Shown: positions 26,751 to 50,342, counted from the first letter of the stretch. The stretch is 64,000 nt of DNA from Planctomycetota bacterium (GCA_050181465.1 JBFXDD010000002.1:117320-181319); one strand, 5' to 3'. Numbers and translations are program-made. The notes: generated from the letters alone by a model not told the origin.

Positions 26751-27017
26751 GCCGGATCAGCACAGTTGCCGGCGGTGTAGCGAGACACGACACCACCGGA
26801 CCGCTCGGCGTGGCCTCTGCCCCCCTTGCAAAGGGTGTTTCGGCGGGGTGTTGTGGCGTCCGGCTCGACTGCCGCCGTGACGATCTCAGGCGGAGCCGCC
26901 GGGCCGTCGATATCGAATGAGAGACTGCGGCGCCGATGGCCCGCAGCGGCTCTGCAACGAGGCCCAGTGACCCGATTCCGCAGCCAAGACGACCAAGTTC
27001 CCGAACCGGCCAAGCCG

Positions 27018-27737: not shown

Positions 27738-27745
27738 GGGGCCCG

Positions 27746-28507: not shown

Positions 28508-28533
28508 ACGGAATCAGTGCGGAAGGGAGCAAC

Positions 28534-29604
28534 ATGAGCGATTCGGAACGAACCTCGGATGCCGCCAACAAGGATCACGGCGTCCTTTACCTCGGGATGG
28601 ATCTCGGCACCTCGCGGACCTCGGTGTCCGCAAGCAACGGTGTGCGGGAGACGGTGCTGTCGGTCGTCGGCTACCCGAAGGACGTCGTGAGCAAGAAACT
28701 GCTCAAGAAGGACGTGCTGTTCGGCAAGGAGGCTCTCGAGCGACGCCTTTCCCTGCGCTTGCACCGGCCGCTACAGAAGGGTGTCTTCAAGTACAACGAC
28801 TTGCCCGAGGGAGCGGATCGGGGAGAAGTCGAGATCGCGGCGCGCGACTTGATCCGAGAGGCGATTCGGCTGGCGCGTCCCCGCAAAGACGAACTGGTCT
28901 ATGCGGTGATCGGTGTGCCGGCCCAGGCCAGTATCCACAACAAGGAGGCCATCCTGGGTGCAGCACGCGCGTCCGTGGATTCCGTCATGCTCTGTAGCGA
29001 GCCCTTCGCGGTCGCGTATGGGCTCGACATGCTCGACGACGCGTTGATCGTCGACATCGGCGCGGGCACCACCGATCTGTGCCGCATGCACGGGACGATG
29101 CCGGAAGACTCCGATCAGATCACCATCCCCTTCGCCGGTGACGTGGTCGACGAGAAGCTCGAAGAGTTGATGCGACAGCACTGCGTCGGGGCGTCCTTCT
29201 CGCTCCAGATGGTGAAGGAGATCAAGGAGCGCTACTCGCACCTCGGCAACGCGCCGGAGCGAGCCTTGGTCACTCTGCCCGTCGACGGCAAGCCCACCGA
29301 GTTCGACGTCACGGACTTGGTCAAGCAAGCGTGCTCGATCGTGGTCGGGCCGATCATCGACGGCGTGCGGAAGCTCATCGGCTCCTTCGACCCTGAGTTC
29401 CAGCATCGGCTGCGCAACCGAGTGGTCCTCGCCGGCGGCGGCTCGATGATTCGGGGTCTGGATTCGGCAATCGAAGACGCGATGCGCAAAGACCTCGGCG
29501 GCGGCAAGGTGGTGCATGTCGATGAACCGCTCTACGGCGGCGCCAACGGTGCACTCAAGATCGCTCACGACATGCCCGCCGACTATTGGGAGCAGTTGCG
29601 CTGA
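28534..29604 (+). CDS. MamK-family bacterial actin
   Basis: The protein is collinear with my recollection of MamK. Matching blocks are LGMDLGTSRTSV, SVVGYPKDVVSKKLL, AVIGVPAQAS, SEPFAVAYGLD, IVDIGAGTTDLC, LAGGGSMIRGL and the C-terminal PADYWEQL. A strong SD GGAAGGGAG lies 5 nt before the ATG at 28534. Confidence 0.85.
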   Translation: MSDSERTSDAANKDHGVLYLGMDLGTSRTSVSASNGVRETVLSVVGYPKDVVSKKLLKKDVLFGKEALERRLSLRLHRPLQKGVFKYNDLPEGADRGEVEIAARDLIREAIRLARPRKDELVYAVIGVPAQASIHNKEAILGAARASVDSVMLCSEPFAVAYGLDMLDDALIVDIGAGTTDLCRMHGTMPEDSDQITIPFAGDVVDEKLEELMRQHCVGASFSLQMVKEIKERYSHLGNAPERALVTLPVDGKPTEFDVTDLVKQACSIVVGPIIDGVRKLIGSFDPEFQHRLRNRVVLAGGGSMIRGLDSAIEDAMRKDLGGGKVVHVDEPLYGGANGALKIAHDMPADYWEQLR

Positions 29605-29619: not shown

Positions 29620-30342
29620 TCAGAAGTCGAAGTCGCTCCGCAGGAGTTCGCGGAGTTCGTAGAACGTGCTGATCACGTAGTCCGGCTTCGTGCGTCCAGG
29701 GGTTGTGGAGTGTCGGCCCGAGCGCCGATTGTGCACCGTGATCATCCCGACTTCGTGCGCCGGATCGATGTCGTTGGTGGGATTGTCGCCGACGTAGAGC
29801 GATCGAGCCGGAGAGAGTCCGAGGTCTTGGAGAACTCTTCGGTAGAGCTTCGGGTTCGGCTTGTTGATCCCGACCTGCTCGGTGAAGTAGATCGCGTTGG
29901 GGGTGAGAAACTGGTACACGCGCAGTCGGATCACCTTCTCCGCCTGTTTGATCCCTAGCCCCGACGAGATGATTCCGCGCACCAGGCCGACTCGCGACGA
30001 GAGCCACTGCAGGACTTCATAGACATCGTCGTACACCTTGAGCTCGTGCCACTTCGTCTCGTGATAGGCGACGATGCCGGCCGCGACCAAGATGTCCGGG
30101 TTGATTCCCTCGCTCGCACTCGGCGGCAGCCGCTGGAGCACCTTGTCGAAGTGGGAGGGATAGTTGCTCGAGAACTCGGCGACGACTTCCGCAAGCTCTC
30201 GAAGGCAGTCGTCAACGCTCGCTCGAAGGCCGTGACGAACCATCGCGTCCATCGCCGCTCGCCGAGCCTTGTCGGCGAATACGGACGTGGAGAACAGCGT
30301 GTCGTCGATGTCGAAGAAGATCGCGTCGAGGGAACGGCCCAC
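29620..30342 (-). CDS. HAD-superfamily hydrolase
   Basis: Motif I FFDIDDTLF, motif II IISSG and motif IV YVGDNPTNDI are present. The gene is convergent with the actin gene. Confidence 0.85.
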   Translation of the reverse strand: MGRSLDAIFFDIDDTLFSTSVFADKARRAAMDAMVRHGLRASVDDCLRELAEVVAEFSSNYPSHFDKVLQRLPPSASEGINPDILVAAGIVAYHETKWHELKVYDDVYEVLQWLSSRVGLVRGIISSGLGIKQAEKVIRLRVYQFLTPNAIYFTEQVGINKPNPKLYRRVLQDLGLSPARSLYVGDNPTNDIDPAHEVGMITVHNRRSGRHSTTPGRTKPDYVISTFYELRELLRSDFDF

Positions 30343-30673: not shown

Positions 30674-33280
30674 TCAGCGACCGTTCATCACGTCGCGGAC
30701 GTCCGTGATCGTCGCCTTGACCAACACCATCAGCGAGCTGTTCTCGTCGACCACGCCCTCTTGCTTGAAGAAGAAGGAGAGGAGCGGGATGCGGCCGAGG
30801 ATCGGCACTTCGGCTCGACGCTCACGGCTGAGCACCTGCCGGAGGCCGCCGATCAGCACTGAGCCTCCATCAGGAACGTCGATCGTGGTCGCGAAGGACC
30901 GAACGACGAGCTGCGGGAGCTGCAGGGTGACCGGCTGGGTTGTGCCGGCGAGCGAGGTCGAGAAGGTCGGGATCGGGCGAACCAGGTCCGCGACCGTCGG
31001 CTGCATGCTGAGGCTGATGCGACGACGATCGGCCGACACCGTCGGCTTGACGTCGAGCACGATGCCGTCCTGGATGACGTCGATCTTGGGATCGGCGATG
31101 AAGGCCGCCTGCGCAACTTCGACTTCGAAGTCACGGACGTAGGCCGTCTGGTTGATGATCGAGACGTAACCGCGCTCGTTGTTGAGCACCGTCAGGTTCT
31201 GACCGTTCAGCTCCTGAGCGTCTTGCTTCTTCTCGACCGCGGTGAGGATCGCCTGCAACTCGAGATCGTTGAGGAACGCGATGGCCGCGGTCATGCCGCC
31301 GTTGGCCGTCAGCGAGCTCCCGAGCGAGGAGGTGAAGCCGTTCTCGGTCCGACCGCGCAGGTCACCGTCTTGGCCGTCGTTGTAGAAGAAGCCGGAGAAA
31401 GGCTTGCCGGCCGGGTCACCCGTGCCCGAGTTGTCGAGACCACGGCTGGCGTTGTTGCTGAGGCCGTTGGTCACGTCGTCGAGCTGGGCCACGGTGCCCT
31501 TGGCGCCGGAGCCGCCCAGACCGCGGAAGTCCACGCCGATCTGCTGCAGGAAGTTCTGACTGACGTTGAGGAACTTCGATTCGACGGTCACGACCGTCGT
31601 GGCAAAGCTACGCAGGTCGTTCAGGATCGTCTCGACGCGGCCGAGCATGGCCGGGTTGGCAGTCACGATGAGATAGCCGCTCTCGGACTGATCGATCTTG
31701 CCGCCGCCATCGGTGTCCCAATAGGTGGGGTCGGTGGCTTCCTTGAGGTTGGAAGCAAGCTTGTCGAGCTCGATGAACGTGGTCTTCTCATCGCCCTCGC
31801 CGCCGGTGCGCGGAACGTCGCTCGAGTCGTCGCCGGTCGGGATGTCGCGGATGCGCGGCGGCAGGAACTGGGTCTTCGCGAAGATCAGATCGCGGACGTC
31901 CATGTAGACGGTCTCGTTCGAGCCACCGGCTTGCGCCTTCGTGGTGATCTGCACGACTCCGTCGCGGACGGTCCAGGCGAGCTGCGCGCTGCGGCCGGTG
32001 ACCTGGTTGAGCAGCGAATCGACGGCCATCGGCGCCGTGATGTCCATCACGATCTTGACGGCTTCCGAGTCGATGACCTCACGCGCCTCCGGCGTGATGA
32101 TCATGGACACGCCGGCGATCGCCTGGATGCGCGTCTTGACCTCGTCGACCGTGCCGTCCTCCTCGGTGAAGGAGATGCCGCTCAGCTTGGTGTCGCGCAG
32201 GATCTTGCGCAGCGCGAGATCATCGGGGTTCTCGATGAACTTGGGGCTGGAGGGAGCGACGCGATTGCTCGCGCGGGCCCAGATCGCAGCGTCGACGGCG
32301 AGCACTTCGTTCTGCGGGATGCGCAGGTCCTCTGCCGTCTCGCGCATCTGGCGGATGCGCTGCGCCCAGGCGCGATAGTATTCATCCGACCGCGATTCCC
32401 GTGCAGCCTTGATCGAGGCGTTGTGGAGTTCGCGGGCGACCTGATTCGAGGGGTCGGCTTCCAGCGCCTTGAATGCGAAGTCCTGGGCGAGTTGGAAGTT
32501 GCGCCGCTCGAAAGCCAAAGTCGCGTTGGCCAAGAGGCCGCCGACCTGTGCACGGATGCGGGCTTCGCGAGCCTCTTCCTGAGCGCGCAGTTCGGTAGCG
32601 GTGCGACGACGGATCTCGTCGCGCTCCGCACGTTCGGCGTCGTCTCGCTTCTTCTCGGCGTCGGCGAGCGCAAGTTTCGCTCGCGGCTCGAGATCGCCCC
32701 AGGCGACGTAGCGGGCGAGGTCGATGTTCCACAGCGCGCGTCGGAAGTCCTCGACCGCACGCGTGAAGTTCTGCTGTGCCAGCGCCTGCTGTCCGGAGTC
32801 CAGCAAGGACAGCACTTCGGCGCGTTGCCGTTCTTCTTGAATGGCGGCGAGTCGGGACTGTTCCTCGGCGAAGGAGGTCACCGTTCCTGCCGGCAGACCG
32901 AGCTCCGCGGAGACCACGTCGAGCAGGTTCTTCACTCGCGGGTCATCCGGCCGGAGATCGAAGGCCTTCACGAGTTCCAATCGCGCGGCTTCCAAGGCCT
33001 CGGGCGTACCCCTTCGGCGGAGGCTCTCTGCCCGCTCGAGGTAGTCCTCGAGCAGCAGGCGATTGCGTTGTGCTTGCAGGGAGTTGTCTTGATCTCCGCT
33101 GCCCGGAACGGGCGTTGGGTCCTGCGTAGACCCGCCAGCCGCGTTGCCGCGGCCAGTCGGTGTCGTGGCTTCGCCGCCGTTCCCTGCATCTCCCGACGAG
33201 TCGGTCGCAGAACAGGCGGAGAATCCGAACAGGAGAGCAGAGATCGAAGCTGCTAGGAGGCTTTGACGATCGAGCTTCAT
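30674..33280 (-). CDS. secretin-family outer-membrane lipoprotein (secretin-1) with a long helical/coiled-coil N-terminal region
   Basis: The internal start MKLDRQSLLAASISALLFGFSAC carries a lipobox. An N0/STN-like module reads VSMIITPEAREVIDSEAVKIVMDITAPMAVDSLLNQVTGRSAQLAWTVRDGVVQITTK. The C-terminal secretin domain reads ...IDVPDGGSVLIGGLRQVLSRERRAEVPILGRIPLLSFFFKQEG... Confidence 0.85.
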   Translation of the reverse strand: MKLDRQSLLAASISALLFGFSACSATDSSGDAGNGGEATTPTGRGNAAGGSTQDPTPVPGSGDQDNSLQAQRNRLLLEDYLERAESLRRRGTPEALEAARLELVKAFDLRPDDPRVKNLLDVVSAELGLPAGTVTSFAEEQSRLAAIQEERQRAEVLSLLDSGQQALAQQNFTRAVEDFRRALWNIDLARYVAWGDLEPRAKLALADAEKKRDDAERAERDEIRRRTATELRAQEEAREARIRAQVGGLLANATLAFERRNFQLAQDFAFKALEADPSNQVARELHNASIKAARESRSDEYYRAWAQRIRQMRETAEDLRIPQNEVLAVDAAIWARASNRVAPSSPKFIENPDDLALRKILRDTKLSGISFTEEDGTVDEVKTRIQAIAGVSMIITPEAREVIDSEAVKIVMDITAPMAVDSLLNQVTGRSAQLAWTVRDGVVQITTKAQAGGSNETVYMDVRDLIFAKTQFLPPRIRDIPTGDDSSDVPRTGGEGDEKTTFIELDKLASNLKEATDPTYWDTDGGGKIDQSESGYLIVTANPAMLGRVETILNDLRSFATTVVTVESKFLNVSQNFLQQIGVDFRGLGGSGAKGTVAQLDDVTNGLSNNASRGLDNSGTGDPAGKPFSGFFYNDGQDGDLRGRTENGFTSSLGSSLTANGGMTAAIAFLNDLELQAILTAVEKKQDAQELNGQNLTVLNNERGYVSIINQTAYVRDFEVEVAQAAFIADPKIDVIQDGIVLDVKPTVSADRRRISLSMQPTVADLVRPIPTFSTSLAGTTQPVTLQLPQLVVRSFATTIDVPDGGSVLIGGLRQVLSRERRAEVPILGRIPLLSFFFKQEGVVDENSSLMVLVKATITDVRDVMNGR

Positions 33281-33647
33281 CGTGATGAGGCTTCCGGGCG
33301 GCGCGCGCGACGACCGCGTTGGGACTTCAGGCCAAGGACGTTGGACGTCTCCGTGTCGTTTGCGGGAGCGACCCGAATCGAACCGAGCATGGGACGACCG
33401 ACATCGAAGGACGGGACAAGGGGGCTCGCGCCGGATGCAGAACGAGGGGTGATCCTGCGGCGCGAGGGCCAAAAGCTAGCGAGCCGGACCTGCCGGTGCC
33501 AGGACGAAGTCCGCGTGATTCTTCGTCGTTCGCCGTCGAATTTTGCCCTCGGCGTTGGCTCGAAGAACACGACCGCAAACCGGCACCTCGGCAGCCGTCC
33601 GGGCGCGCGCTGGGAGAACGTATCGACGTGAGCTAGCCCGGAACGCA

Positions 33648-33683
33648 ATCAGCCCGAGGGTCCGTCGGGACCATCGGGCTGAT
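33648..33683 (-). terminator. terminator-like hairpin downstream of the second exbD, with a second hairpin at 33690-33709
   Basis: ATCAGCCCGA...TCGGGCTGAT forms a 10-bp stem with inner GGTCC/GGACC pairing. An adjacent hairpin GCCGGCC-N6-GGCCGGC follows. Neither has a clear U-tract, which is common in GC-rich genomes, so confidence is low. Confidence 0.35.
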
Positions 33684-33737
33684 GGGGGGGCCGGCCAAGG
33701 TCGGCCGGCGCGAAGTGATCCTCGCGGACCGGTCGGC

Positions 33738-34301
33738 TCAGCGCTTCGCGGGTGCCGGGCCGCGACCGCCGCCGAAGTTGAGTTCTTCGAAGCCGATCGC
33801 CTTCACGCGGTCGACGACCTGGGCGACGTCGCCGTAGGTCGTGCCCGGCTGGGGTTCGATCACCACCGGGATGAGCTTGCGCTTCCCGGGGTTCATGGCA
33901 TCGGGAACCATGCTGGAAGCGGGGTCTGCTTTGATCTTCTCCAGTGCCTTCTCGAACTTGTCCAGTTGGTCGAAGGGGGTGGCGTTGATCGCATACTTCA
34001 CGCGGTGGCCGATGTAGGCCCACGCGGTCGGATTGCCCTTTTCATCGAATTCCTTCTGGTTCTGTCGACGGGGCGTCTTCTGCCCCATCTCGACGAGTTC
34101 GATTCGCAGCGACAGTTGCTCCTGCGGCTCGACTTTGAAGTTCTGCGAGCCCTTGTCCTTGGGCAGGAAGGCTTGCAGCTTCGATTCGAGCGACTTGAAC
34201 TCGATACAGAGGAAGAAAATGATCAGAAGGAAGACGCAGTCGATCATCGGCGTGAGATCGAGCTTGGCTTCTTGTTGGGCGTCGTCGAGATGGCTAGCCA
34301 T
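33738..34301 (-). CDS. exbD: ExbD/TolR-family protein (second copy)
   Basis: The motif LDLTPMIDCVFLLIIFFL contains the conserved TM Asp. The periplasmic C-domain reads IPVVIEPQPGTTYGDVAQVVDRVKAIG. Confidence 0.85.
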   Translation of the reverse strand: MASHLDDAQQEAKLDLTPMIDCVFLLIIFFLCIEFKSLESKLQAFLPKDKGSQNFKVEPQEQLSLRIELVEMGQKTPRRQNQKEFDEKGNPTAWAYIGHRVKYAINATPFDQLDKFEKALEKIKADPASSMVPDAMNPGKRKLIPVVIEPQPGTTYGDVAQVVDRVKAIGFEELNFGGGRGPAPAKR

Positions 34302-34370
34302 GGAATGAAAGTTCCTTGCTCAGTCCGAAGTTTGGGGTTGGTACCGAAGGACGAATGGATCCGCCCTCGC

Positions 34371-34907
34371 TCACTTTCCTTCAGCGAGCCGCTGAAGCAT
34401 TCTGGCTTCCTTGTCCTTGTCGCTCAGCGCCAACTCGATCTTGTAGAACGCGGCGTCGGGCTGGCTGCAGGAGGTCATGAACACGCCGACCCAGTGCCAC
34501 TCGGTCCACTTGTCGGCTCGGACGAGCACGGGGTCCTCCACGAGAGTGACCATCTTGCCGCCGATGTTCTCCTGCTTGGTTTCCTTGACGACGGTGTTCT
34601 TCCACTCCAGGAGCAGCTTGCGGATCTGCTCGGGAGCTTCCTTCTCCGAGTGCTTGCGCGGATCGAAGAACGGATTCTTCCGGTAGATGATCCGACCATC
34701 CTGAGTGATGTTCGCGATCGGACGAACGTCCGGCGGTTTGTTGTCGGGCGCCGCCTTCTCTGCCTTCGGCAGGATGAGGTCTTCCAGCTCCTTCTGGCTC
34801 AGGTCGATGACCAGAACGAAGAAGATCATGAGCAAGAAGACGCAGTCGATCATGGGCGTCATGTCCATCTCGACTTCCTGGTTCGCCTTGGCGGATGCTT
34901 TGGCCAT
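34371..34907 (-). CDS. exbD: ExbD/TolR-family protein (first copy)
   Basis: The motif MDMTPMIDCVFLLMIFFVLV contains the conserved TM Asp. The periplasmic domain is extended. Confidence 0.85.
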   Translation of the reverse strand: MAKASAKANQEVEMDMTPMIDCVFLLMIFFVLVIDLSQKELEDLILPKAEKAAPDNKPPDVRPIANITQDGRIIYRKNPFFDPRKHSEKEAPEQIRKLLLEWKNTVVKETKQENIGGKMVTLVEDPVLVRADKWTEWHWVGVFMTSCSQPDAAFYKIELALSDKDKEARMLQRLAEGK

Positions 34908-35042
34908 GGTGGTGCGTCCTCGATAAGTGGGGTAGGGGGAGCCCCGCGATCACGACCGGCAAGGCCGGACGGAACCGCTACGGCAAACGGCGGTGGGGGC
35001 TCTTGGGTTCAAAACTGCGGCCGGGCTGCGACCGCACCTTGA

Positions 35043-35783
35043 TCAGGCCTTGGTGCCCCCGGGGGAGGAACGGAACCGCTCGAAGAGGTCCTCGGCAATC
35101 GCGTTCACTTCGATCGTGGTGCGGACGACGCGGTTGCGGAAGGTGAAGAAGAACGCCGCGGTCGGGAGGGCCACGACGAGGCCGAAGATCGTCGTCACGA
35201 GCGCCAGCTTGATACCGCCGGCAAGGTCGGACGGCTGAACCGAACCGCCGGCATCCGCGATCTGACCGAAGGTCACGAACATGCCCGACACCGTGCCGAG
35301 CAGTCCGAGCATCGGGGCGGAGGCCGAGATCAGCGACAACCAGCCGATCTTCTGGAAGAGCTTGACCGTCTCCTCCTCCTCCATTTCGCGAACGCTCATC
35401 TGCACGGTCTCGAAGGAGTGACCGAGCTTGGACAGGCCGGCCTGCACCACGTTGGTGAGGTAGTTGCGATCGCTCTCGCAGAGGTCCATCGCCTCCTGGA
35501 ACTGCTCGGCCTCGAACAGGGCTTCCAGTTCGTCGATCACGTCCGGCGGCGCAAGCTTGTCGCGCTTGATCGAGACGAAGTTCTCGATGATGAGGGCCAC
35601 GGCGACGATCGACAGCGCGACGATCACGTAACCGATCGTTCCTGCGTTGGCGAAAGCCTCGACGACGGCGTTCTTTGACGGCGGCTTGTCCGCGGCGGCG
35701 TCTTGCGCGAAGGCAGTGCCGGCGAGGGTCAGCGGAGCGAGGTAGGTCAACAGACCGGAGAACAGGTTCGACTTGCGAATCAT
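35043..35783 (-). CDS. exbB: MotA/TolQ/ExbB proton-channel protein with an N-terminal signal-like extension
   Basis: The conserved C-terminal core reads LISASAPMLGLLGTVSGMFVTFGQI...GGIKLALVTTIFGLVVALP, and three TM segments are present. Confidence 0.9.
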   Translation of the reverse strand: MIRKSNLFSGLLTYLAPLTLAGTAFAQDAAADKPPSKNAVVEAFANAGTIGYVIVALSIVAVALIIENFVSIKRDKLAPPDVIDELEALFEAEQFQEAMDLCESDRNYLTNVVQAGLSKLGHSFETVQMSVREMEEEETVKLFQKIGWLSLISASAPMLGLLGTVSGMFVTFGQIADAGGSVQPSDLAGGIKLALVTTIFGLVVALPTAAFFFTFRNRVVRTTIEVNAIAEDLFERFRSSPGGTKA

Positions 35784-35941
35784 GGGTTCGAGGGGAGCTG
35801 GAACCGGGCGGACGGAACTGCGAGGGAAGTCAGCAACCGACCGGGGGACTTCGAGGGGCTGGAAGAGTGTGCGCAGCCGGGCGTCGCTTGGGAAGCCCCT
35901 GCTGTGCGGAAGGTGGAAAAAGGAAACCGCGGCCGCAGGTG

Positions 35942-37159
35942 TCAGCGCTTGAGTTCGGCGGCAGCGAGTGCGGCCCAGCGAGTGTCGGCGTACTCGCGAG
36001 TCACGGTCTCGAAATACTCGGCGGCTCGCGTCTGGACGTTCGGACCATCGCGATCGGGGCCGAGTGCCAGGAGAATGAGACCGGAGTAGTAGAGCGACTT
36101 GGCAGTGGCGGCCGCTGCGACGTCGTCGAGAAGGTTGGCGTCCGCGAAGGCGATCTGGGCCTTGCGGAGATCGTCGCCGCTACCGCCGGACTTCGCCTGC
36201 AGATAGATGGCTTCGCCTTCGCCGGCCTTGGCTGCTGCCCGAATGGCGTCGGAGGTGGCGCGCCGGCCGACCTCGTCTCGGAAGTAGCTCAGCGCGTCGG
36301 CGAACTTGCCCTGCTGGATCATCGATTCACCGGTGCCAACGAGCGCTTCCGCTTCGATCGCGATGGCCTCTTCGCTCTTGCGCTCCGCTTCGCTCAGCGC
36401 GCCGAGTGCCGTGGCAGCCGAAGCGAAGGTCGCGCGTGCGTTGGCAAAATCGCCGCGCGCCATCTGCGCGTTCGCGAGGCCGAGCTTCCCACGCGCACCC
36501 CAGATTGCCGACCAGCCGTTCCCGACCGCGTCGTCGGCGAGCTTCTTGAAGGTGCCTTCCGCTTCGGGGAACGCTTCCGCGCTGACCTGCGCGCGGCCCA
36601 GCGCCATCAGCGCGTCGGGCATACGCAGCGCGTCGGCATTCGAACCGATCCAGGCTTCGAGGCGGCGTGAGGCCTCGGCAGCCGCAGCCTTGTCCCGAGC
36701 GGAACCCCGCTGGAGGGCTTCGGCGGCGAGGAACTCGAACTCGGCCTTGAGCGGCGCGCGTCCGGTCTTGCCGGCGGCCGCCATGAAGAGGTTGGCAGCG
36801 CCGGCGGCATCCCCGGCTCGCATCGCGGCCTTGGCCTGGGCGACCTCTTCTGGTTGTCCGCCCCACTCGATGTCGAGCACGAGGACGGTCGGAATCTCCG
36901 ATGCTTCGGCCTTGCGCTTGTAGTGCACGGCGGTGGCTGTCGCGCTGGTGATCTCGACGCCGCGCAGGCGACGACCGTCTCGCAGCGAGATGACGTCGGT
37001 GCCGGAGTCCTGGGCGAGCACCTGCGGAGCGCACAGCGCGGTGAGGACGGTCATCGTGACCAGAGCGGGGATGAGCTTCATCGTCGACGAGAGTTGCGGA
37101 GTGATGAGGTTGCGACGTGTCGTAGCGGTGCGCGCAGGTGAGGGGTCCGACATCGTCAT
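35942..37159 (-). CDS. exported TPR-like protein (C-terminus resembles CpoB/YbgF-type TPR)
   Basis: The ATG at 37159 forms an ATGA overlap with the upstream gene stop. An alternative ATG at 37081 directly precedes the signal peptide MKLIPALVTMTVLTALCAPQVLAQ. Alanine-rich helical repeats are present, and the protein ends ...AAEYFETVTREYADTRWAALAAAELKR. Confidence 0.65.
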   Translation of the reverse strand: MTMSDPSPARTATTRRNLITPQLSSTMKLIPALVTMTVLTALCAPQVLAQDSGTDVISLRDGRRLRGVEITSATATAVHYKRKAEASEIPTVLVLDIEWGGQPEEVAQAKAAMRAGDAAGAANLFMAAAGKTGRAPLKAEFEFLAAEALQRGSARDKAAAAEASRRLEAWIGSNADALRMPDALMALGRAQVSAEAFPEAEGTFKKLADDAVGNGWSAIWGARGKLGLANAQMARGDFANARATFASAATALGALSEAERKSEEAIAIEAEALVGTGESMIQQGKFADALSYFRDEVGRRATSDAIRAAAKAGEGEAIYLQAKSGGSGDDLRKAQIAFADANLLDDVAAAATAKSLYYSGLILLALGPDRDGPNVQTRAAEYFETVTREYADTRWAALAAAELKR

Positions 37160-40044
37160 CGCTGGCTGTAGACCGCCTGGAAGAGGTTGTAGATGCGCAT
37201 CCCTTCCGGGCCGTAGGACTTCAACCTTGCGAAGTCGTCGAGAATGGTCTTCGCGGTGTTGTAGATGGTGTTCGCGTAAGCCACGAACTTGCTGTCTTTG
37301 CGCGAGGCGCGCTTCGCCAGCATGAACGCCTCGAGATGGTACTCGTACCACTCGAGCGAGTAGTCCTCGACGCCGCGATTCGGATTGAGCGCGTAGCGCC
37401 GATACTCGACCCAGTAGCGCTCATATGCGGGGATGGGGTCATCCATCCCGAGGATCTCCTGCGTGTTGCCGCGAGCGTCGAACTGGAACCAGCCACCCTG
37501 GGCCAAGCTCAGTAGGCGCTTCACCGGGTAGTTGGGCCGATCCTTGCGAGCTTCGTCGGCCGCCGTCAGGAAGCGCACCGCGTCTTCGAACTTGTCGCCC
37601 TGTCGCATCAGCGCTTCGCCGACTGCAGGCAGAATCCAATTCTCGACGTTGCTCTTCTGCTTTGGATCCTCGCCGAAGACCTCGATTCCGCGGCGACCCA
37701 ACTTCTCGAGCGACTTCCAATCGGAGAGGCTCTTCGCCAGGACGACGCCGGAATAGATCACGTCGAACGCGGGTGACGTCGCCGTGTCGTTGTAATCGAG
37801 CACCATGGCCAGGGCCGCGCGTCGCGCGGTCTGCAGCCTCTGAAGGACGGGTTCGAAGGTCTTGGCATCAGCACCCTTGGCGATGAGCGCCTTCTCCTCT
37901 TCCTCGATGGCCTTCACGTTGTCCCAGTGCGCCTTGAAGATCGCGGTCGAGAGGCCAGGCAGGAGCGAACTCTTCGGGTTCAGGGCCCGCAAGGTTCGGT
38001 AGTTCTCCTCGGCCTTGGCGATGCGGCCTGTCTGAGCCTGCATTCGCGCCATCATGTCGTAGCCGCTCGCGGCGAGTTCCTCCTCGCGCTTGCCGCGCTC
38101 TTCGATGAAGCGATTCAGGTCGGCGATGATCGCGTCGAAGCGGGTTGGATCGGCCGCCTTGCCGGTCGAGCCGGTCGCTTCCAGATAGTCGATGTACGAC
38201 GACCAGAACACGACCTTCGCGACTGCGGACTCGCGGGTGGTCTGCAACTCTCGTGAGTCCAGCTTCGCCGCCGGAGTCTCTATCCACGCCAGGTAGTCCT
38301 TGATCGCGGCACGAGCCTTCGGGATGTCGCCGGCGCGTTGCCAGATCTGCGGCAGCAGAGACTGTGCAGGTTCGTAGAACGGCGTGCCGACCGGGATGCG
38401 CGCGAGAGCGGCGGCCGCCTCGGGGAACTTGGCCTCGGTGATGAGCCGATTGGCTTCCTTGTAGAGACCCTTGGCCTCGCCGCCCGGGCCGCCGTACTCG
38501 GGCACGTAACGATCGAGGATCTGGCCGCCGATCTCGGTGAGAGCCGGAGTCATCTCCTTCGCATCGCGGGTGAACAGATTCCATGCGCGCTCGAGGTCGT
38601 CACAGACGTCCGAGGCACGCTCCTTGTCGTCCTTCCCGTGCAGTTCGAGACCGCGCATAGCCGCGCGGACGGACTCCAGGTAGCGCTTCTGCAAGGCAAA
38701 GGCTCGCGACATGAGCTGCCAGGCTTCCAGGCCGGAGCTTGCCTTCTCTGCGTCGTCCATCGCCGCGTACGCGCGCTTGAGCCCACGAGTCGCTCGCTCG
38801 TACTCCCGCTCTTGGTACGCGCCCTTGGCGACTTCGAAGAGGAGCGCGCCGTTGACCGCGCTGCCGCCTTCCAGGATGTCGCGAAGCGCATTCTTCGCCC
38901 GCACGCCGATGATGTCGCTCGGGTGCTTGCTGTTGACGAGCGCGACTTGCTCCAGCGCCTTCGCGACCAACTCGGGCTTGCCGGACTCGGCCATCGCGCG
39001 AGCTTCGGTCAGGAACACCGGATGTCCGAAACGGGGGTGCGCCACGTCGAACGGATCCGCTCCCTTCTCGCCGTACTTCGTCAGGTCATCGCGGAACTGC
39101 TGGCAGAGGGCCAGGGCTTCGTCGATTCGCCCGAGGTTGAAGAGCGTCTCCGCCGAACGGTCGTAGCACTCTTGCGCGAGGTTGAACATCGACTCGCGGA
39201 TCTCCGCGGGAAGTTCGATCTCCTCCGAGTCGAGGGCGTTGTGGATCGTGGCGAGCGTGTCCTTGTAGTCGCTCACGGCGCTTTCCATGTCGCCGAGCAC
39301 TTCGTTCGACTTCGCCATCTCGAACCAAGCGCGCTGACCGAGCAAGGTTTCTTCGCCGACGTCGAGGATCAGCTCTTCGAAGGTCTCACGCGCGACGTCG
39401 ACCAGCGTCTTTCGATCGGCGGCGTCGGCCACGCGCGCAGCTTCTCGCTGCAGCATGGCCTGGTAGAGCCACGCAACGTAGAAGTCGCGCTGCGCGGACG
39501 AGCCGTCCTCATTGCGCTTGCTGCGCAGCTTTTCTCGCACCTGCTTGGCGGCATCGATTCCGTCGCGGAACACCGAGCCGGCGTTCTCGCGCAGATCCGG
39601 CAGTTTGTCCGGAGCATCTTGCGCCGCGATCTCCAGTTCTTCGATCAGGAACTGGCCGTAGTCGAAGCTCGCCTCGAGCAGGGTTCGCCGAGCTTGGTCG
39701 CCGACCGGTTCGTTGCCGTAGGCAGCAATGAACTCCTTGCTCGACTCGACCGCTTCACGGAACAGCCGTCGCCGTTCCTCCGGGCGCGAATCGACACGCG
39801 CGCCGAGCAGCGAGACGTCGATTCCCAACTGGCGCACGGCCTTGGCCGCATCGGTGTCGCGGTACTCCTTCTGGAGCGCTTCGACTTGGTCCTTGGCCAG
39901 GGAGATGAAACCCAGGTCGGATGCCAGCTTGCGAACGAACTCGAGTTCGCGCTCGATGGCGGGGGAATTCTGGGCGAAGAGTTGCGCGGAACTGGCGACC
40001 ATGAGGCCGCACAGCACCGCAAACGCGGGCCGTGGAGTCGACAT
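37156..40044 (-). CDS. large exported TPR-repeat protein (962 aa)
   Basis: The internal start MSTPRPAFAVLCGLMVASSAQLFAQ is a signal peptide. TPR-like helical hairpins run throughout (e.g. YGQFLIEELEIA, AWLYQAMLQREAAR, EALALCQQFRDD, AEENYRTLRALNPKS). Confidence 0.7.
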   Translation of the reverse strand: MSTPRPAFAVLCGLMVASSAQLFAQNSPAIERELEFVRKLASDLGFISLAKDQVEALQKEYRDTDAAKAVRQLGIDVSLLGARVDSRPEERRRLFREAVESSKEFIAAYGNEPVGDQARRTLLEASFDYGQFLIEELEIAAQDAPDKLPDLRENAGSVFRDGIDAAKQVREKLRSKRNEDGSSAQRDFYVAWLYQAMLQREAARVADAADRKTLVDVARETFEELILDVGEETLLGQRAWFEMAKSNEVLGDMESAVSDYKDTLATIHNALDSEEIELPAEIRESMFNLAQECYDRSAETLFNLGRIDEALALCQQFRDDLTKYGEKGADPFDVAHPRFGHPVFLTEARAMAESGKPELVAKALEQVALVNSKHPSDIIGVRAKNALRDILEGGSAVNGALLFEVAKGAYQEREYERATRGLKRAYAAMDDAEKASSGLEAWQLMSRAFALQKRYLESVRAAMRGLELHGKDDKERASDVCDDLERAWNLFTRDAKEMTPALTEIGGQILDRYVPEYGGPGGEAKGLYKEANRLITEAKFPEAAAALARIPVGTPFYEPAQSLLPQIWQRAGDIPKARAAIKDYLAWIETPAAKLDSRELQTTRESAVAKVVFWSSYIDYLEATGSTGKAADPTRFDAIIADLNRFIEERGKREEELAASGYDMMARMQAQTGRIAKAEENYRTLRALNPKSSLLPGLSTAIFKAHWDNVKAIEEEEKALIAKGADAKTFEPVLQRLQTARRAALAMVLDYNDTATSPAFDVIYSGVVLAKSLSDWKSLEKLGRRGIEVFGEDPKQKSNVENWILPAVGEALMRQGDKFEDAVRFLTAADEARKDRPNYPVKRLLSLAQGGWFQFDARGNTQEILGMDDPIPAYERYWVEYRRYALNPNRGVEDYSLEWYEYHLEAFMLAKRASRKDSKFVAYANTIYNTAKTILDDFARLKSYGPEGMRIYNLFQAVYSQR

Positions 40045-40264
40045 CGGCGACGGATCGGGGTGCGAAGGTTCGCGCGTGGTTGCGCGCGGGCGATGGGACC
40101 GTGGGCGGGTCGGGGGTCTAGACCGCGCCAGTGAGGAACGGCGGAGTATAGACGCAGGTTGAGCCCAATTCACGTTCGAGCATCGACTCTCCAACTGCGA
40201 GGGAGGAGCGATCCCTAGCCGGCCTCGAAGTGGCCGACCGTGTCGACGTGCCCAGAAACGCAGC

Positions 40265-40292
40265 GAGGCCGGCGGGTGACCCCGTCGGCCTC
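40265..40292 (-). terminator. terminator-like hairpin downstream of secretin-2
   Basis: GAGGCCG-N14-CGGCCTC forms the hairpin. On the minus strand it is followed by GCUGCGUUUC. An AGTATA (TATACT on the minus strand) at 40145-40150 could serve as a -10 for the TPR genes. Confidence 0.3.
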
Positions 40293-40364
40293 GTCATGAT
40301 CGACTGCGAAACGGATTCGCGTCGCGCTGCACGTGCACCCGCGGCGAGTACACGCGCAGGGTGG

Positions 40365-43061
40365 TCAGCGCGTGCTCAGTAGCGTGTCCACCGCATCGGG
40401 CAGCACGCCGGGCTCGAACTCCGGCGCCAGGATGATCCGGGCACGGATGAGGATGATGATCTTGCGATTGAGCACGTAGCTGCCCTTACGGCTGAACAGC
40501 AGCGACAGACCCGGCAGATCCTTGAGGATCGGCACGCCGGAGACTTGGTTCTGCCGCTCAGCGAGCTTCATGCCGCCGAGCAGGATCGAGCCGCCGTCCG
40601 GCATCGTCACCGTGGTGCGGACGCTCTGCAGGTTGGTCACCGGCAGCTGGATCGAAACCGGTTGGCCGGCACCCAGCGTCGTGGTGAAGGTCGGGATCGG
40701 AAGCTGCAGGGTCATCACGGTCGGACGGAGCTCCATCGTGATGAAGCGGCGATCCGCGGAAACGACCGGGCGGACATCGAGCACGACACCGTCACGTACC
40801 ACACCGACGACCGGGTTCGCCACGGCAGCCGCCTGCGCGATTTCCACACCGAAGTCGCTGATGTAGGAGGTGGAACGCAGCGCCTGCATGTGCGCGCGGG
40901 TGTTGTTGAACACCAAGAGCCGCGGCGCCACGATCTCCTCGCTGCGCTCCTGCTTCGAGACCGCGCGCAGGATGAGCTGCAACTCGGTGTCGTCGAGGTA
41001 GGCGTACTGGAGGGAGAGGCCGCCGGAGTTGTCGAGGCCGCCTTGACGGCCGCCGAGCGCGCGATCGTAGAGGTGCTCGGTGCGCCCCATGATGTCGCCG
41101 TCGCCACCGTCGTCGAAGAAGACGCCCGGCTCGGTCCCGGAGCCGATTTGGCCGGGCGCCGCCGAGTTGATCTGCTCCGCACGACCAAAGTCGTCGAAGC
41201 GAAGGTTGCTGCGGTTGTTCCGCTCGAGGCCGCGGCCAGCGCGACCTTCCGAGGACTGATCGCCGAGACCGCGGAAGTCGACGCCGATGTCTTCGAGGAA
41301 GGAGTCCTCGACCTTCAGGAAGCGCGCTTCGATGTCGACTTGGATTCCGACCGACTGCCGGAGCTGGCCCAGCAGGCGCTCGATCTGCTCGTGAACTTCT
41401 CGGGTGTTGCGGACGAGCAACACACCGCTCTCGAAGTTGATCGTGTTGCCTTCGGTCCAGCTCTCAGCGGCGATGTTCGACTGGATCAAAGTCGTCAGGG
41501 TGCCGTCGTCGACCACGCTCGGGAGCGGATCTTCTTCATCGAGCCCGAGGCCGCCGTCGTCGGAGCCCGGGACGGTCAGGCGAAGCTGCGGACCGGGCTG
41601 ATTGCGGATGCCCTGCACGATGTCGCGCACTTCGTACTGCTTGAGATAGGCGCGGCCGATCGGTGTGGCGGCCGACACGATCTCGACGACCCCGTCACGC
41701 ACGTGCCACTTGAGGCCGGTCTGTGCCGCGATCACGTTGAGCGCCTTGCTCACCGGCATGTTCGCCAAGTGGAAGTCGGTCAAGGTCGTCGCTTCTTCGC
41801 CCGCCTCGGTTGCGCTCGGGGCGATCACGACGTTCACGTTGGTCGCGTCTTGGTAGTGACGAGCCCAGTCGCGCAAGGTCGCCGAGCTGAAGTGGTGCTC
41901 GATGCTGACCGAGTCGAGGATCTGGCGAACGGCGCGATCCTCGCTGGCTTCCATGGCCTCGGCCGGCGTGAACTCGCGGGGCTTGCGAGTCTCGAGCACG
42001 TAGGACCAGCGTTGCAGGTCGTAGACCACGGTCTCGGTCTGCGGCAGCAGCGAGCGGTTGATCTCGTCGAAGGCCTCGATCCACTGTTCCTTCCAACGCT
42101 GCCGTGCAACGTCGAGCTTGCTCTCGTGATTCGCTCGCGAGGCCAGGTCCAGGAAGGCCGCGACTTCTGCGTTGTTCGGGTCGATGGTGGCCGCTTGTTG
42201 CAGCGCCGATTCCGCGGAGCCGAAGTGGCCGTTCTGGAAGTCTTGGTTGGCCTGCACGAGCAGTCGCGACACGCGCTGTTCGCGCTCGAGTCGGCGGCGC
42301 CGTTCGGCTTCTTCGAGTTCCGCACGCGAGCGAGACTGCTCGTCGGCCAACTCCTTCTGCATCGCCTCGGCGCGACGCTGCTGCGCCATCTCGTACTTGC
42401 GCTGGATCTCCTTCTCGAGGTCCGTGCCCGGCGTCGAGAAGGCGTCGATCTGCAGTTGCCGCAAGGCGGTGTAGTAGTGCTCGATGGCGTCGGCGTAGCG
42501 ACCCAGTTCGAGTTCGGCGTCGGCCTGTTGCGTCAGCTGACGGACGCGGAAGCGAGTGCGCTCCTGCGCGACGCGCGCTTCGAGCACCTTGCTGTCGAAG
42601 GTGCGCGCGACGCGAGCGGTGTCATCCCCGAGGATCTCCTGCACGGAGAGAAGGATGGTTCGTGCCTCCTCGTTGGTCTCGTCGAGTTCGAGCACCTGAG
42701 TCGACTCGCGCAGCGCGTCGGCGTACAGGCGGTACTCGAGCGCACGGCGAGCCCGATCCAGGCCGTCCTGGATCAGCAGTCGGCGGCGTTCCTGACCGAC
42801 CTGTGCCGGCGGATCCTGGGGCTTGTCTTGTTCCCCGGAAGCGACTCCATACGACGCGAGGTCGAGCCGTGCGATCCCAGGCGATGGAGTCAAGGGCCGG
42901 ACTGCCGCGCCACCATTGCCGCCGTGACCGACGGCGCTGCCACCGGCCGTGTTCGGCGCGGTGTCTGGGGTGGCGGGTCCCTGCGTTCCCGAGCAGGCGA
43001 ACAGGAGAGCGGCGGAGGAGAGGGTGAGGCCGCGAAGGACTATCGAACGGACCATCTTCAT
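40365..43061 (-). CDS. secretin-family outer-membrane lipoprotein (secretin-2), paralog of secretin-1
   Basis: A lipobox SAALLFACSG is present, followed by a long coiled-coil/helical N-region. The N0/STN-like module reads VNVVIAPSATEAGEEATTLTDFHLANMPVSKALNVIAAQTGLKWHVRDGVVEIVSA. The secretin C-domain reads ...VTMPDGGSILLGGMKLAERQNQVSGVPILKDLPGLSLLFSRKG... Confidence 0.85.
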   Translation of the reverse strand: MKMVRSIVLRGLTLSSAALLFACSGTQGPATPDTAPNTAGGSAVGHGGNGGAAVRPLTPSPGIARLDLASYGVASGEQDKPQDPPAQVGQERRRLLIQDGLDRARRALEYRLYADALRESTQVLELDETNEEARTILLSVQEILGDDTARVARTFDSKVLEARVAQERTRFRVRQLTQQADAELELGRYADAIEHYYTALRQLQIDAFSTPGTDLEKEIQRKYEMAQQRRAEAMQKELADEQSRSRAELEEAERRRRLEREQRVSRLLVQANQDFQNGHFGSAESALQQAATIDPNNAEVAAFLDLASRANHESKLDVARQRWKEQWIEAFDEINRSLLPQTETVVYDLQRWSYVLETRKPREFTPAEAMEASEDRAVRQILDSVSIEHHFSSATLRDWARHYQDATNVNVVIAPSATEAGEEATTLTDFHLANMPVSKALNVIAAQTGLKWHVRDGVVEIVSAATPIGRAYLKQYEVRDIVQGIRNQPGPQLRLTVPGSDDGGLGLDEEDPLPSVVDDGTLTTLIQSNIAAESWTEGNTINFESGVLLVRNTREVHEQIERLLGQLRQSVGIQVDIEARFLKVEDSFLEDIGVDFRGLGDQSSEGRAGRGLERNNRSNLRFDDFGRAEQINSAAPGQIGSGTEPGVFFDDGGDGDIMGRTEHLYDRALGGRQGGLDNSGGLSLQYAYLDDTELQLILRAVSKQERSEEIVAPRLLVFNNTRAHMQALRSTSYISDFGVEIAQAAAVANPVVGVVRDGVVLDVRPVVSADRRFITMELRPTVMTLQLPIPTFTTTLGAGQPVSIQLPVTNLQSVRTTVTMPDGGSILLGGMKLAERQNQVSGVPILKDLPGLSLLFSRKGSYVLNRKIIILIRARIILAPEFEPGVLPDAVDTLLSTR

Positions 43062-43248: not shown

Positions 43249-44031
43249 TCATGCTCCGGCGTGGCCGACGCGCGGATCGTCCGGGCGGCCGAGCAGTCGG
43301 TTGACTCGCTTGATGTCTTCCCAGGTGTCGCGCTTCGCCGACGGCTGGCGCAGCAGGTATGCCGGGTGCCAAGTGGCGACGACCGGAATCCCGCGCCACT
43401 CCAGGTCCCGCGACCGCAACTGGTTCATGGGCAGCGCGGTGCCGAGGAGATTCTGCGCGGCGACGCGACCCAGGGTCACCAGGACTCTGGGGGCGATCGC
43501 CTGGATCTGCGCGTGGAGGAAGGGCATGCACGCGGCGACTTCGTCCGGCTCCGGGTCGCGGTTGTTGGGCGGGCGGCACTTGTTGACGTTGGCGATGAAC
43601 ACGTCGGATCGCCGCAGCCCCATCGCGTTCTCGATGATCCGCGTCAGCAGCTCACCGGCGGGGCCGACGAAGGGGCGCCCGGTCTCGTCTTCCCGCGCTC
43701 CCGGCGCTTCACCGATGAACATGACCTGCGCGGCCGCGTTGCCTTCGCCGAACACGACCGTCGAGCGCGTCTTGCACAGCTTGCAGCGGCGACATGCCGC
43801 GGCAACGCTGCGTAGTCCTTCCAGGTCGCCCGGAAGCTCGATTGGCGGAGCCGGCATCACCGGTGGGGCGACGGCAACCACGGCTTCGGCCACGCGCATG
43901 GGCGGGGCGGTCGGCCGTTGGGCGTCAGGTGACGGCGCCTTCGCCGGCAACCGGCAGCGGACCGGCAAGTCGCCGCCGTAGGCTTCCGCCGCGCCGCGGA
44001 TCCACAGCAGCAGAGCGGAGCGGAGGCTCAT
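43249..44031 (-). CDS. uracil-DNA glycosylase, family 4 (Fe-S type)
   Basis: The CRRCKLC cysteine motif is present. Motif A reads VMFIGEAPGAREDETGRPFVGPAGELL. The C-terminal HPAYLLR motif is also present. Confidence 0.85.
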   Translation of the reverse strand: MSLRSALLLWIRGAAEAYGGDLPVRCRLPAKAPSPDAQRPTAPPMRVAEAVVAVAPPVMPAPPIELPGDLEGLRSVAAACRRCKLCKTRSTVVFGEGNAAAQVMFIGEAPGAREDETGRPFVGPAGELLTRIIENAMGLRRSDVFIANVNKCRPPNNRDPEPDEVAACMPFLHAQIQAIAPRVLVTLGRVAAQNLLGTALPMNQLRSRDLEWRGIPVVATWHPAYLLRQPSAKRDTWEDIKRVNRLLGRPDDPRVGHAGA

Positions 44032-45064: not shown

Positions 45065-45168
45065 GTGGATCGTTGGATTAGCGCCGGGCGACTTCGCCGG
45101 CCCGACGCGCTAAGAACGGCCGTCTAGCACAATCCAGCCATCCGACGCAGTCAACCAAAACCCCGGTG

Positions 45169-48296: not shown

Positions 48297-48495
48297 AGTG
48301 CCTCGTGAGCCAAGCAACATTCGTTCGACCACGATCCTCGAGGTTGATGCGCGGGAGCGGAACCTGTAGCGTCCCGCAAGCCTCCGCGGACGCGGTTGGC
48401 GGGCGGTGGCGCGGTGGTCAGGCCGCGCCAGCAGTGCGTATTCCGTGACCGCGCAGCACCGCGGTCGGCTTCGCTCTTCGATCTGGGAGTTCGTG

Positions 48496-49224: not shown

Positions 49225-49255
49225 CGCGAGCCGTCGGTGCCGCGCCGCCACTCTC

Positions 49256-50310: not shown

Positions 50311-50342
50311 CCTTCACCGCTCGGCCGACTATCCTCGGCCGC

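Follow-up and report, generated by a model that had tools for sequence, protein, structure and literature searches.

Paired lipoprotein secretins and an ExbB–ExbD–ExbD module in a conserved locus of Planctomycetota

Introduction

To our knowledge, every known secretin is a passive, gated ring in the outer membrane that belongs to an ATP-driven machine. Here we describe a locus of a Planctomycetota bacterium in which two paralogous secretin genes enclose the genes for two tetratricopeptide repeat (TPR) proteins and for an ExbB–ExbD–ExbD motor of the type driven by proton-motive force (PMF). It occupies positions 30674-43061, on the minus strand, of a stretch of 64,000 nucleotides (GCA_050181465.1 JBFXDD010000002.1:117320-181319), the whole of which is referred to below as the window. 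The initial annotation of this DNA had proposed a trans-envelope machine of stator, TPR proteins and secretin that works with neither ATPase nor platform. Our analysis inclines us, by a modest degree, to read the window instead as a derived copy, devoid of pilMNO, of an ancient Planctomycetota locus in which the motor works with the secretins.

Among the described systems, those of type IV filaments are close to this locus. PilM/N/O-type alignment complexes work with a PilB/PilC-type ATPase and platform and with pilins that are usually encoded at other loci (pilMNOPQ vs. pilBCD in Pseudomonas), and the MSHA cluster mshI-J-K-L-M-N is an analogue in gene order, with a TPR gene (mshN) following that of the secretin. 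The planctomycete locus resembles the type IVa pilMNOPQ loci of Pseudomonas, Myxococcus and Thermus in that its relatives encode an actin-like PilM, bitopic proteins and a secretin with an N0 + N1 + secretin core, and in that neither ATPase nor pilins are encoded there, but its secretins are two in number, lack AMIN and carry a fused TPR region and a lipid anchor, and a PMF motor lies within the cluster. In Akkermansia muciniphila, the Amuc_1098–Amuc_1102 cluster encodes a PilM/FtsA-like protein and small signal-peptide/bitopic proteins (PMC5332112), and Amuc_1098 itself, an abundant secretin of the outer membrane, has a BamD/pilotin-like TPR domain fused to it (PMC4960237). A secretin of about 900 aa with an N-terminal TPR region and, in planctomycete relatives, a PilM-like gene are common to both loci, whereas the second secretin, the two TPR proteins and ExbB-ExbD-ExbD have not been reported for the Akkermansia cluster, and the window itself has no PilM-like gene.

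For the motor genes, a close counterpart is a module of the Planctomycetes–Verrucomicrobia–Chlamydiae (PVC) group in which a TPR gene, one gene resembling tolQ and two heterologous tolR-like genes are followed by inner-membrane-tethered vWA proteins with a TonB-like SHLS helix (Mol Biol Evol 2025, PMC12204202). The order TPR405–ExbB–ExbDa–ExbDb, the dissimilarity of the two ExbDs and the superphylum are the same in both, but the planctomycete cluster has no vWA or TonB-like protein, and secretins flank it, the next gene being that of secretin-1. The layout had also been likened to that of the AglRQS motor; this comparison is one of gene order, with one ExbB-like and two ExbD-like subunits. In AglRQS–Glt of Myxococcus, as in GldLM/PorLM of type IX secretion, a PMF-driven stator of MotA/ExbB type energises an outer-membrane-linked machine, but there are no secretins and no PilM in those systems, so that the resemblance is one of principle and gene order only. 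With Tol-Pal and its CpoB protein the locus shares a TolQ/TolR-like stator and CpoB-like TPR proteins; unlike Tol-Pal, it has no TolA, TolB, Pal or YbgC, it has two ExbDs, and its TPR genes lie upstream of the stator and not at the operon end. Finally, assembly of type IV pili and natural transformation require TonB3 in Pseudomonas aeruginosa and TonB2 in Acinetobacter baumannii, by a mechanism that is unexplained (PMC8811193). These are likewise PMF-linked, Ton-family components in a PilQ-dependent process, but they were found by genetics and lie outside pilMNOPQ, whereas the planctomycete locus encodes an ExbB/ExbD stator in cis and no TonB.

Results

Organization of the cluster

Calling of open reading frames (ORFs) and Pfam searches bore out the predicted cluster of seven genes, all of them on the minus strand within 30674-43061. 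Its features, in the order of the genes on that strand, are the following.

40365..43061, minus strand: secretin-2 (SecA ortholog), 898 aa; PF00263 at 81.7 bits and weak TPR matches
40264..40293, minus strand: GC-rich hairpin with a 13-nt stem and a 4-nt loop, from an inverted-repeat search, 72 nt downstream of the secretin-2 stop
37156..40044, minus strand: TPR962, large periplasmic TPR/helical-repeat protein, 962 aa; weak Pfam TPR matches, cleavable-looking signal peptide
35942..37159, minus strand: TPR405, CpoB-like, 405 aa; weak Pfam TPR_7/TPR_16 matches, cleavable-looking signal peptide
35043..35783, minus strand: ExbB/TolQ-family proton-channel subunit; PF01618 at 87.3 bits against a cut-off of 22.9
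34371..34907, minus strand: ExbD/TolR protein of type a (ExbDa), 178 aa; PF02472 at 51.9 bits, transmembrane motif TPMIDCVFLLMIFFVLVIDLSQ with the conserved Asp
33738..34301, minus strand: ExbD/TolR protein of type b (ExbDb), 187 aa; PF02472 at 62.6 bits, transmembrane motif TPMIDCVFLLIIFFLC
33281..33737, minus strand: non-coding spacer of 457 nt upstream of secretin-1; no ORF, no Rfam match
30674..33280, minus strand: secretin-1 (SecB ortholog), 868 aa; PF00263 at 84.2 bits, architecture as in secretin-2

Thus, profile searches with the seven proteins matched the secretin model twice, PF01618 once and PF02472 twice, the TPR matches being weak. The successive intergenic distances were 320, -4, 158, 135, 69 and 457 nt. 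The negative value is the ATGA overlap that had been predicted between the two TPR genes, with the start codon of TPR405 lying across the stop of TPR962; starting TPR405 at 37081 instead yields a canonical signal peptide. The long spacer before secretin-1, given previously as 458 bp, was measured at 457 nt, and the hairpin after secretin-2 was recovered and is a possible terminator or RNA-processing site. After the second ExbD, where two hairpins had been placed, only short palindromes were recovered, and a sequence scan gave no sigma-70-like promoter. Scanning of the cluster for promoters and terminators gave nothing above chance, and the Rfam scan no credible match. The 33281..33737 spacer probably contains the promoter and 5' leader of a separate secretin-1 transcription unit, and the cluster as a whole probably forms three units, sec2, then TPR-TPR-exbB-exbD-exbD, then sec1.

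The two secretins

Both secretins exceeded the PF00263 cut-off of 27.5 and covered model positions 1-168 of 169. They are 31% identical to each other over their full length (E 4e-84) and each has a lipobox (LFGFSAC and LLFAC), in agreement with the proposal of two paralogous lipoprotein secretins. In secretin-2, a lipoprotein signal and a linker are followed by a helical/TPR region (residues ~87-336), an N0-like (373-477) and an N1-like domain (519-572) and the secretin domain (701-877). Residues 87-336, 373-477 and 519-572 were modelled with confidence by AlphaFold (mean predicted local distance difference test score, pLDDT, 55); the alignment used had 10 sequences and the secretin domain with its barrel was left unmodelled (pLDDT <40), so only the N-terminal domains of this model are usable. 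Its top Foldseek match was the N0-N1 fragment of EscC, with InvG, PilQ N0, PilF and BamD also matched. As modelled, secretin-2 has the N0 and N1 domains looked for in the secretin superfamily. An N0/STN-like module had been assigned to both proteins; the structural comparison supports it for the secretin-2 model, whereas the Pfam STN/N0 match was below threshold (16.4 bits vs. a cut-off of 28.4) and found in secretin-2 only.

Compared with every curated NCBIfam secretin family, the two proteins scored far too low for membership. The top match of secretin-2 was Amuc_1098_fam (NF042912), at 112.9 bits vs. a cut-off of 750, with residues 224-734 aligned to model positions 120-616, so that the N-terminal region is included. 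PilQ (TIGR02515, cut-off 284) was matched at 93.9 and 54.7 bits and GspD (TIGR02517, cut-off 351) at 60-71 bits, and the N0-N1-N2-N3 architecture of GspD was not matched either, N0 plus one N domain being modelled. MshL, which is among the best secretin-domain matches, was also below threshold in secretin-2. When residues 1-560 of secretin-2 were used in an exhaustive search, 1009 clusters at 50% identity were obtained at E <= 1e-3, and since many of these are of ~860-950 aa and align over secretin-2 residues ~85-560, the architecture represents a sizeable family; ten distant members that were sampled all fell below threshold for the same NCBIfam models. The secretins of the cluster are lipoproteins of the PVC 'long' type, in which a fused pilotin-like TPR region precedes N0, N1 and the secretin domain as in Amuc_1098.

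One of the related loci described below, L086, carries two secretins that are the reciprocal best matches of secretin-2 and secretin-1, its SecB being 35% identical to secretin-1. As L086 also has pilM, the secretins were duplicated before the split that separated the PilM-bearing lineages. Secretin paralogs that are paired and inherited together are unusual in themselves.

Within the secretin domain of secretin-2, in the part that AlphaFold left unmodelled, there is an insertion of about 100 residues that is rich in Gly and Asp (residues ~590-700; window ~40960-41290). It has two motifs common to all members of this family, [IV]GVDFRGLG and F[FY]DDG[GQ]DG, the latter resembling an acidic loop that may bind cations.

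The ExbB/ExbD module and the TPR proteins

ExbB has a cleavable-looking N-terminal signal peptide and three transmembrane segments by hydropathy, and is nearest to the TolQ/ExbB equivalog models of NCBIfam, all of them below cut-off and TolQ the best; the ExbDs are weakly TolR-like by the same models. ExbDa and ExbDb are alike only in the transmembrane helix carrying the conserved Asp. The motif of this helix is kept in 49 ExbDa orthologs and T-P-M-I-D is invariant across 33 aligned ExbDb orthologs, ExbDb having in addition KLxAYLPKD after the transmembrane motif and a C-terminal FGGG motif. A profile search with ExbDb over genomes and metagenomes gave 3191 proteins at E<=1e-5, and among the matches listed there were orthologs only.

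A third ExbD, which is a duplicate of type b, occurs in scattered relatives (L002/L040, L016, L028, L031, L032, L035, L038, L039, L061, L065, L081, L083, L111, L142 and L156), and in L156 two type-b copies are lengthened to 241-252 aa.

For both TPR proteins, CpoB/YbgF and BamD were the top natural matches in the Protein Data Bank, as obtained with profiles of 41 orthologs for TPR962 and 36 for TPR405. The latter, in which a small N-terminal beta domain precedes the TPRs, matched CpoB (6g5s) at E 2.7e-11, and scored 23.5 bits with NCBIfam tol_pal_ybgF, for which the cut-off is 90. Neither protein has a lipobox.

Secretins have dedicated assembly factors, among them GspA/GspB (ExeA/ExeB) and the pilotins PilF/Tgl, and ExeB was described as TonB-like. 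It could thus be that the TPR proteins and ExbBD act in biogenesis only, as a device that pilots or inserts the secretins through the peptidoglycan. The resemblance of the TPR regions to the lipoprotein assembly factors BamD and PilF, the pilotin-like TPR region fused to the secretins themselves and the persistence of secretins without the module in some lineages, as for an accessory factor, all speak for such a device. Pilotins, however, are normally lipoproteins, and the TPR proteins lack a lipobox; no peptidoglycan-binding component or ExeA-like ATPase was found, and the data do not separate assembly from operation. On balance, a role confined to assembly appears unlikely to us.

The locus in relatives

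Related loci, designated here by L numbers, were collected by several searches. A word-indexed protein search with secretin-2, and then with an alignment as the query, gave 13 close relatives, and distant ones were reached by the exhaustive search of representatives. An identical copy of secretin-2 is recorded from a metagenome-assembled genome of Planctomycetota. A genome scan with one genome per species gave at least 350 relatives, of which the best 80 loci were analysed, and a metagenome scan seeded with an outgroup SecA added 79 further loci, for a total of about 165. The best 80 are almost all labelled as Planctomycetota or planctomycete lineages, with identities to secretin-2 from 78% to 37%. 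One of them, L024, is from a metagenome-assembled genome that bears the label CL500-15, the name of a lineage assigned to OM190, an uncultured class (PMC5607371). Two genes mark the boundaries of the locus.

43249..44031, minus strand: uracil-DNA glycosylase (UDG), PF03167; conserved upstream boundary
29620..30342, minus strand: HAD-family hydrolase, PF00702/PF13419; conserved downstream boundary

By tblastn, the order UDG–Sec2–TPR962–TPR405–ExbB–ExbD–ExbD(–ExbD)–Sec1–HAD was found in most loci that were long enough, with TPR962/TPR405 and ExbB/ExbD/ExbD tightly spaced, so that the adjacency of secretin, TPR and exbB-exbD-exbD genes is strongly conserved and ancient. Packing is tight in the ATGA overlap of the window and in L091/L092 (SecA–TPR–TPR–ExbB–ExbD–ExbD–SecB–HAD), where gaps within the TPR–ExbB–ExbD–ExbD block are of 0-44 nt. 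Recent horizontal acquisition of the cluster was considered and is unlikely, because GC content and skew are unremarkable and the locus is kept vertically between the same flanking genes.

PilM-bearing loci were reached through the genomic context of distant family members from the exhaustive secretin search and through the metagenome scan. PilM and bitopic genes come before the orthologous secretin in L056, L086-L088, L090, L093, L101, L129, L144, L147, L150, L152, L156 and L157, and are directly upstream of SecA in L056, L086-L088 and L090; in such relatives UDG and SecA have the pilM-N-O genes between them. The simpler arrays are UDG–PilM_2–two hypothetical genes–SecA–SecB (L086), UDG–PilM–2 genes–SecA–TPR962-like (L087), PilM–1 gene–one secretin (L088, a complete 9.3-Mb genome) and UDG–PilM–3 genes–SecA–small TPR–SecB–amidase–HAD (L090). 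What had been labelled by its position as the second secretin of L087 is actually the TPR962-like protein. PilM is found in one co-directional array with SecA, a small TPR gene, ExbB, two ExbDs and SecB in L129, L148 and L150, and the fullest array, L156, reads UDG–PilM–408-aa bitopic–404-aa bitopic–SecA–TPR(1110 aa)–TPR(374 aa)–ExbB–ExbD–ExbD–ExbD–SecB on one strand, with gaps of 14-164 nt. Mutual exclusion of PilMNO and the motor, as if one functionally replaced the other, is ruled out by these four loci, which carry both; TPR962 also co-occurs with PilMNO in L087, L093, L156 and L157.

The PilM of L156 matched PF11104 over its full length (110.8 bits) and exceeded the cut-off of TIGR01175 pilM (155 bits vs. 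133), whereas it reached 252 bits, and that of L090 ~250 bits, with Amuc_1101_fam, for which the cut-off is 650. With scores of 113/750 and 252/650 for the Amuc_1098 and Amuc_1101 families, the planctomycete proteins are distant relatives of those of Akkermansia and not members of their families. No Pfam or NCBIfam match was obtained for the bitopic proteins (250-510 aa) after PilM.

The PilM homologs are long (549-694 aa; L156 4160-6241, and L086, L087, L088 and L090), and in L156 a transmembrane helix at residues 429-456 follows the actin-like domain, a topology like that of a PilM–PilN fusion or of GspL. In L090, an Amidase_2 gene (N-acetylmuramoyl-L-alanine amidase type, 16973-17554) between SecB and HAD may encode a peptidoglycan-remodelling accessory.

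In a SecA tree rooted on the paralog, the PilM-bearing loci formed an early-branching grade, several of them with the motor, and two large PilM-less clades, one holding the window, were derived. Because the PilM-bearing loci branch early and several have the motor, the simplest reading of these arrays is that the full locus looks ancestral, comprising pilM-N-O, the two secretins, the two TPR genes and the motor, and that different segments of it were later deleted or moved elsewhere in different lineages. Read in this way, its fuller form comprises UDG, pilM, two putative PilN/O-like bitopic genes, secretinA, large TPR, small TPR, exbB, exbDa, exbDb (with a third exbD in some), secretinB and HAD, and the lineage of the window appears to have lost pilMNO from the locus.

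These relatives bear directly on the idea of a self-contained PMF-only machine of stator, TPR proteins and secretin, with no ATPase, platform or pilus, in which, for example, macromolecules might enter or leave through a secretin gated by PMF. Within the 64 kb, Pfam searches of all sizeable ORFs gave no GspE/PilB, GspF/PilC, pilin or prepilin peptidase, and no TonB_C, TolA, TolB, Pal, vWA domain or TonB-dependent receptor; a six-frame motif scan gave no prepilin motif and no GspE-type Walker A, and the window has no Pro-rich TonB-like ORF, no gsp genes and no PilM. Components of Glt, Gld or Por did not turn up in general Pfam scans of the window, in which no specific Glt models were used. The absence of a secretion ATPase, platform, pilin, prepilin peptidase and TonB reported previously was therefore confirmed, and it agrees with a PMF-only machine, as do the loss of pilMNO from the locus with retention of the motor in two large derived clades and the lack of any other visible partner for the motor. 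Nevertheless, type IV filament systems usually encode their ATPase, platform and pilins away from pilMNOPQ, so that the lack of these genes in a stretch of 64 kb is uninformative. In addition, the orthologous secretins are embedded with PilM/N/O-type genes and the same motor in early-branching lineages, and 17 PilM-less loci have both secretins with neither PilM nor motor adjoining, which indicates that partners are routinely encoded elsewhere. A machine of this kind thus seems very unlikely. Of the original proposal, the conserved adjacency and the lack of another partner for the motor stand, whereas its premise of no ATPase and no platform is undermined by the early-branching and outgroup relatives, in which PilM (above the TIGR01175 cut-off) and two bitopic genes precede the orthologous secretins; the co-variation of the secretins with type IV pilus loci that would have spoken against it was seen in part, in the PilM/N/O-like genes beside the orthologous secretin pair.

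Coupling of the motor to the secretins

Several observations weigh against a working link between motor and secretins. Among 112 informative loci, the motor lies after SecA and between the secretins in 81, the secretins are adjacent in 24, only TPR genes separate them in 3, and 4 have other arrangements; the exceptions thus have Sec2 followed directly by Sec1 or TPR gene(s) alone between them. Placed on the Sec2 tree, these losses of motor or TPR genes are scattered and amount to at least five independent events with full-length secretins, so the motor is dispensable or can be encoded elsewhere. UDG is found upstream of SecA or PilM in 96/107 loci and HAD downstream of SecB in 18/25 loci where that position is visible, compared to 48/79 loci for the motor where both secretin ends are visible; since unrelated genes are kept as well as or better than the motor, adjacency is weak evidence in this clade. 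The conserved gaps flanking the motor block, of ~270 and ~410 nt (medians of ~271 nt between Sec2 and TPR962 and, in 45 loci, of ~414 nt before Sec1), suggest separate transcription units. Furthermore, the PVC TPR-tolQ-tolR-tolR module, which also occurs with vWA partners, may be generic and portable; no PilM/N/O is visible within the 64 kb of the window lineage; and the trees on which the history of the locus is based are neighbour-joining trees without support values.

Taken together, such observations could mean that two unrelated systems share one old syntenic block, the pilus-like secretins on one side and on the other a Tol/Ton-like TPR–ExbB–ExbD–ExbD envelope system that would tether the outer membrane, act in constriction or energise receptors encoded elsewhere. 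The equally conserved UDG and HAD neighbours have no plausible role, the motor is lost repeatedly from beside intact secretins, and the gaps on either side of the motor block are the larger ones. Moreover, both TPR proteins are closest to CpoB/YbgF, the TPR partner of Tol-Pal, ExbB scores best with TolQ, and the TPR-tolQ-tolR-tolR motif is found elsewhere in the PVC group with other partners (PMC12204202). What such a system lacks is its own partners: no TolA, TolB, Pal, TonB or TonB-dependent receptor was found in the window or around the module in the ~165 loci surveyed. The module is also inserted inside the pilM…secretinB array and not beside it, stably across the deepest sampled splits, and loci that lost ExbBD have kept TPR genes beside the secretins: TPR962 is still between the secretins in L014, L024 and L059/L078, and a TPR405 homolog in L090, where PilMNO is present. 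We hold the presence of two unrelated systems to be possible but somewhat improbable.

Neighbouring genes

UDG and HAD are not considered functional parts of the system. In the rest of the window Pfam searches gave housekeeping genes, with matches that include FtsK, DnaB, BamA, PNPase, hutH/hutU, UDG, DUF481, an ECF sigma factor and a MacB-type efflux set. A protein of 932 aa with C-terminal TPRs (45166-47964, plus strand), divergent from DUF481–UDG and unrelated to TPR962, is kept at that position in many relatives (L004-L044 and others).

Convergent with HAD there are three co-directional genes (26781-29604, plus strand) for a ParA/MinD-like ATPase (AAA_31), a coiled-coil protein of 253 aa and an MreB/Salactin-like actin homolog; coiled-coil and actin-like genes are also found just past HAD in L014. 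The actin-like gene (28504-29601) was considered as the missing PilM and rejected, as it matches MreB_Mbl/Salactin and not PilM_2, its similarity to the PilM of L087 being marginal (E 9e-5). Cytoskeletal genes of the bacterial actin and ParA-like kinds are of interest in planctomycetes, FtsZ being absent from many of them.

Elsewhere, a complete FtsK (4TM, alpha, motor, gamma) is followed by a 621-aa ORF with FtsK gamma as its sole Pfam match (14266-19174, plus strand). A tripartite efflux set (7644-13492, minus strand) comprises a MacB-type permease (MacB_PCD + FtsX), an HlyD-family adaptor that is unusually long at 815 aa and a TolC-like OEP, the adaptor and OEP frames overlapping, from stop to stop, at ~11705-12057. 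Around a methyltransferase gene, a run of ORFs with coding-like GC content at third codon positions has no Pfam match (48370-56218); these are 48370-49224 on the plus strand and 49042-50313, 51521-52474, 52475-53119, 54114-55850 and 55817-56218 on the minus strand.

Discussion

The evidence leans towards reading the window as a derived form, without PilMNO, of a locus that is ancient in Planctomycetota and whose motor works with its secretins. That the secretin pair forms the outer-membrane conduits of a pilus-like, PVC-type type-IV-filament machine follows from the established biology of type IV pili and type II secretion, and by analogy with such systems the PilB/PilC-type ATPase and platform and the pilins would be expected to be encoded elsewhere in the genome.

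Coupling of the motor to the secretins is plausible. Since the module carries no TonB, TolA, TolB, Pal, vWA protein or receptor, the secretins are the most obvious outer-membrane partners for it, and the window appears to offer it no other outer-membrane partner or transducer. Coupling is also consistent with the embedding of the module in the array, apparently since the deepest sampled split, and with the stay of TPR genes beside the secretins after the putative loss of ExbBD (L014, L024, L090). In such a machine, a PMF-driven inner-membrane stator of 5:2 composition would be formed by ExbB and a heteromeric ExbDa/ExbDb pair, the ExbDs would contact both periplasmic TPR proteins through their long periplasmic parts, and the TPR proteins would bind the secretins at the N-terminal TPR/N0 region. 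The flow of protons might then serve to build the secretin rings or set them in place through the peptidoglycan, or to open and close them; a parallel would be the dependence of type IV pilus assembly and DNA uptake on TonB3/TonB2 in Pseudomonas and Acinetobacter.

A stronger form of the proposal, in which the stator directly gates or powers the double-secretin conduit through the TPR proteins, we regard as quite unlikely. If true, such a PMF-energised secretin might work without a pilus in PilMNO-less lineages, and could be a long-sought route for the uptake of large polymers into the enlarged planctomycete periplasm.

What is new is a PVC-type type-IV-filament locus with a duplicated secretin and a built-in PMF stator, a combination undescribed in the literature searched, where we found no secretin or PilMNO locus with embedded ExbB/ExbD and no paired-secretin pilus locus in Planctomycetota; the literature searched on the composition of crateriform structures likewise held no prior description of such a locus. 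The much-studied Amuc_1100 belongs to the Akkermansia cluster to which this locus is also related. A PMF stator that shares an ancient array with PilM/N/O and two secretins would suggest that a type-IV-filament machine receives energy from a second source, and offers a testable handle on why TonB-family proteins are required in Pseudomonas and Acinetobacter for DNA uptake and for the assembly of type IV pili. For the largely uncultured Planctomycetota, whose surface structures and macromolecule uptake lack a molecular explanation, it identifies a conserved and abundant envelope apparatus.

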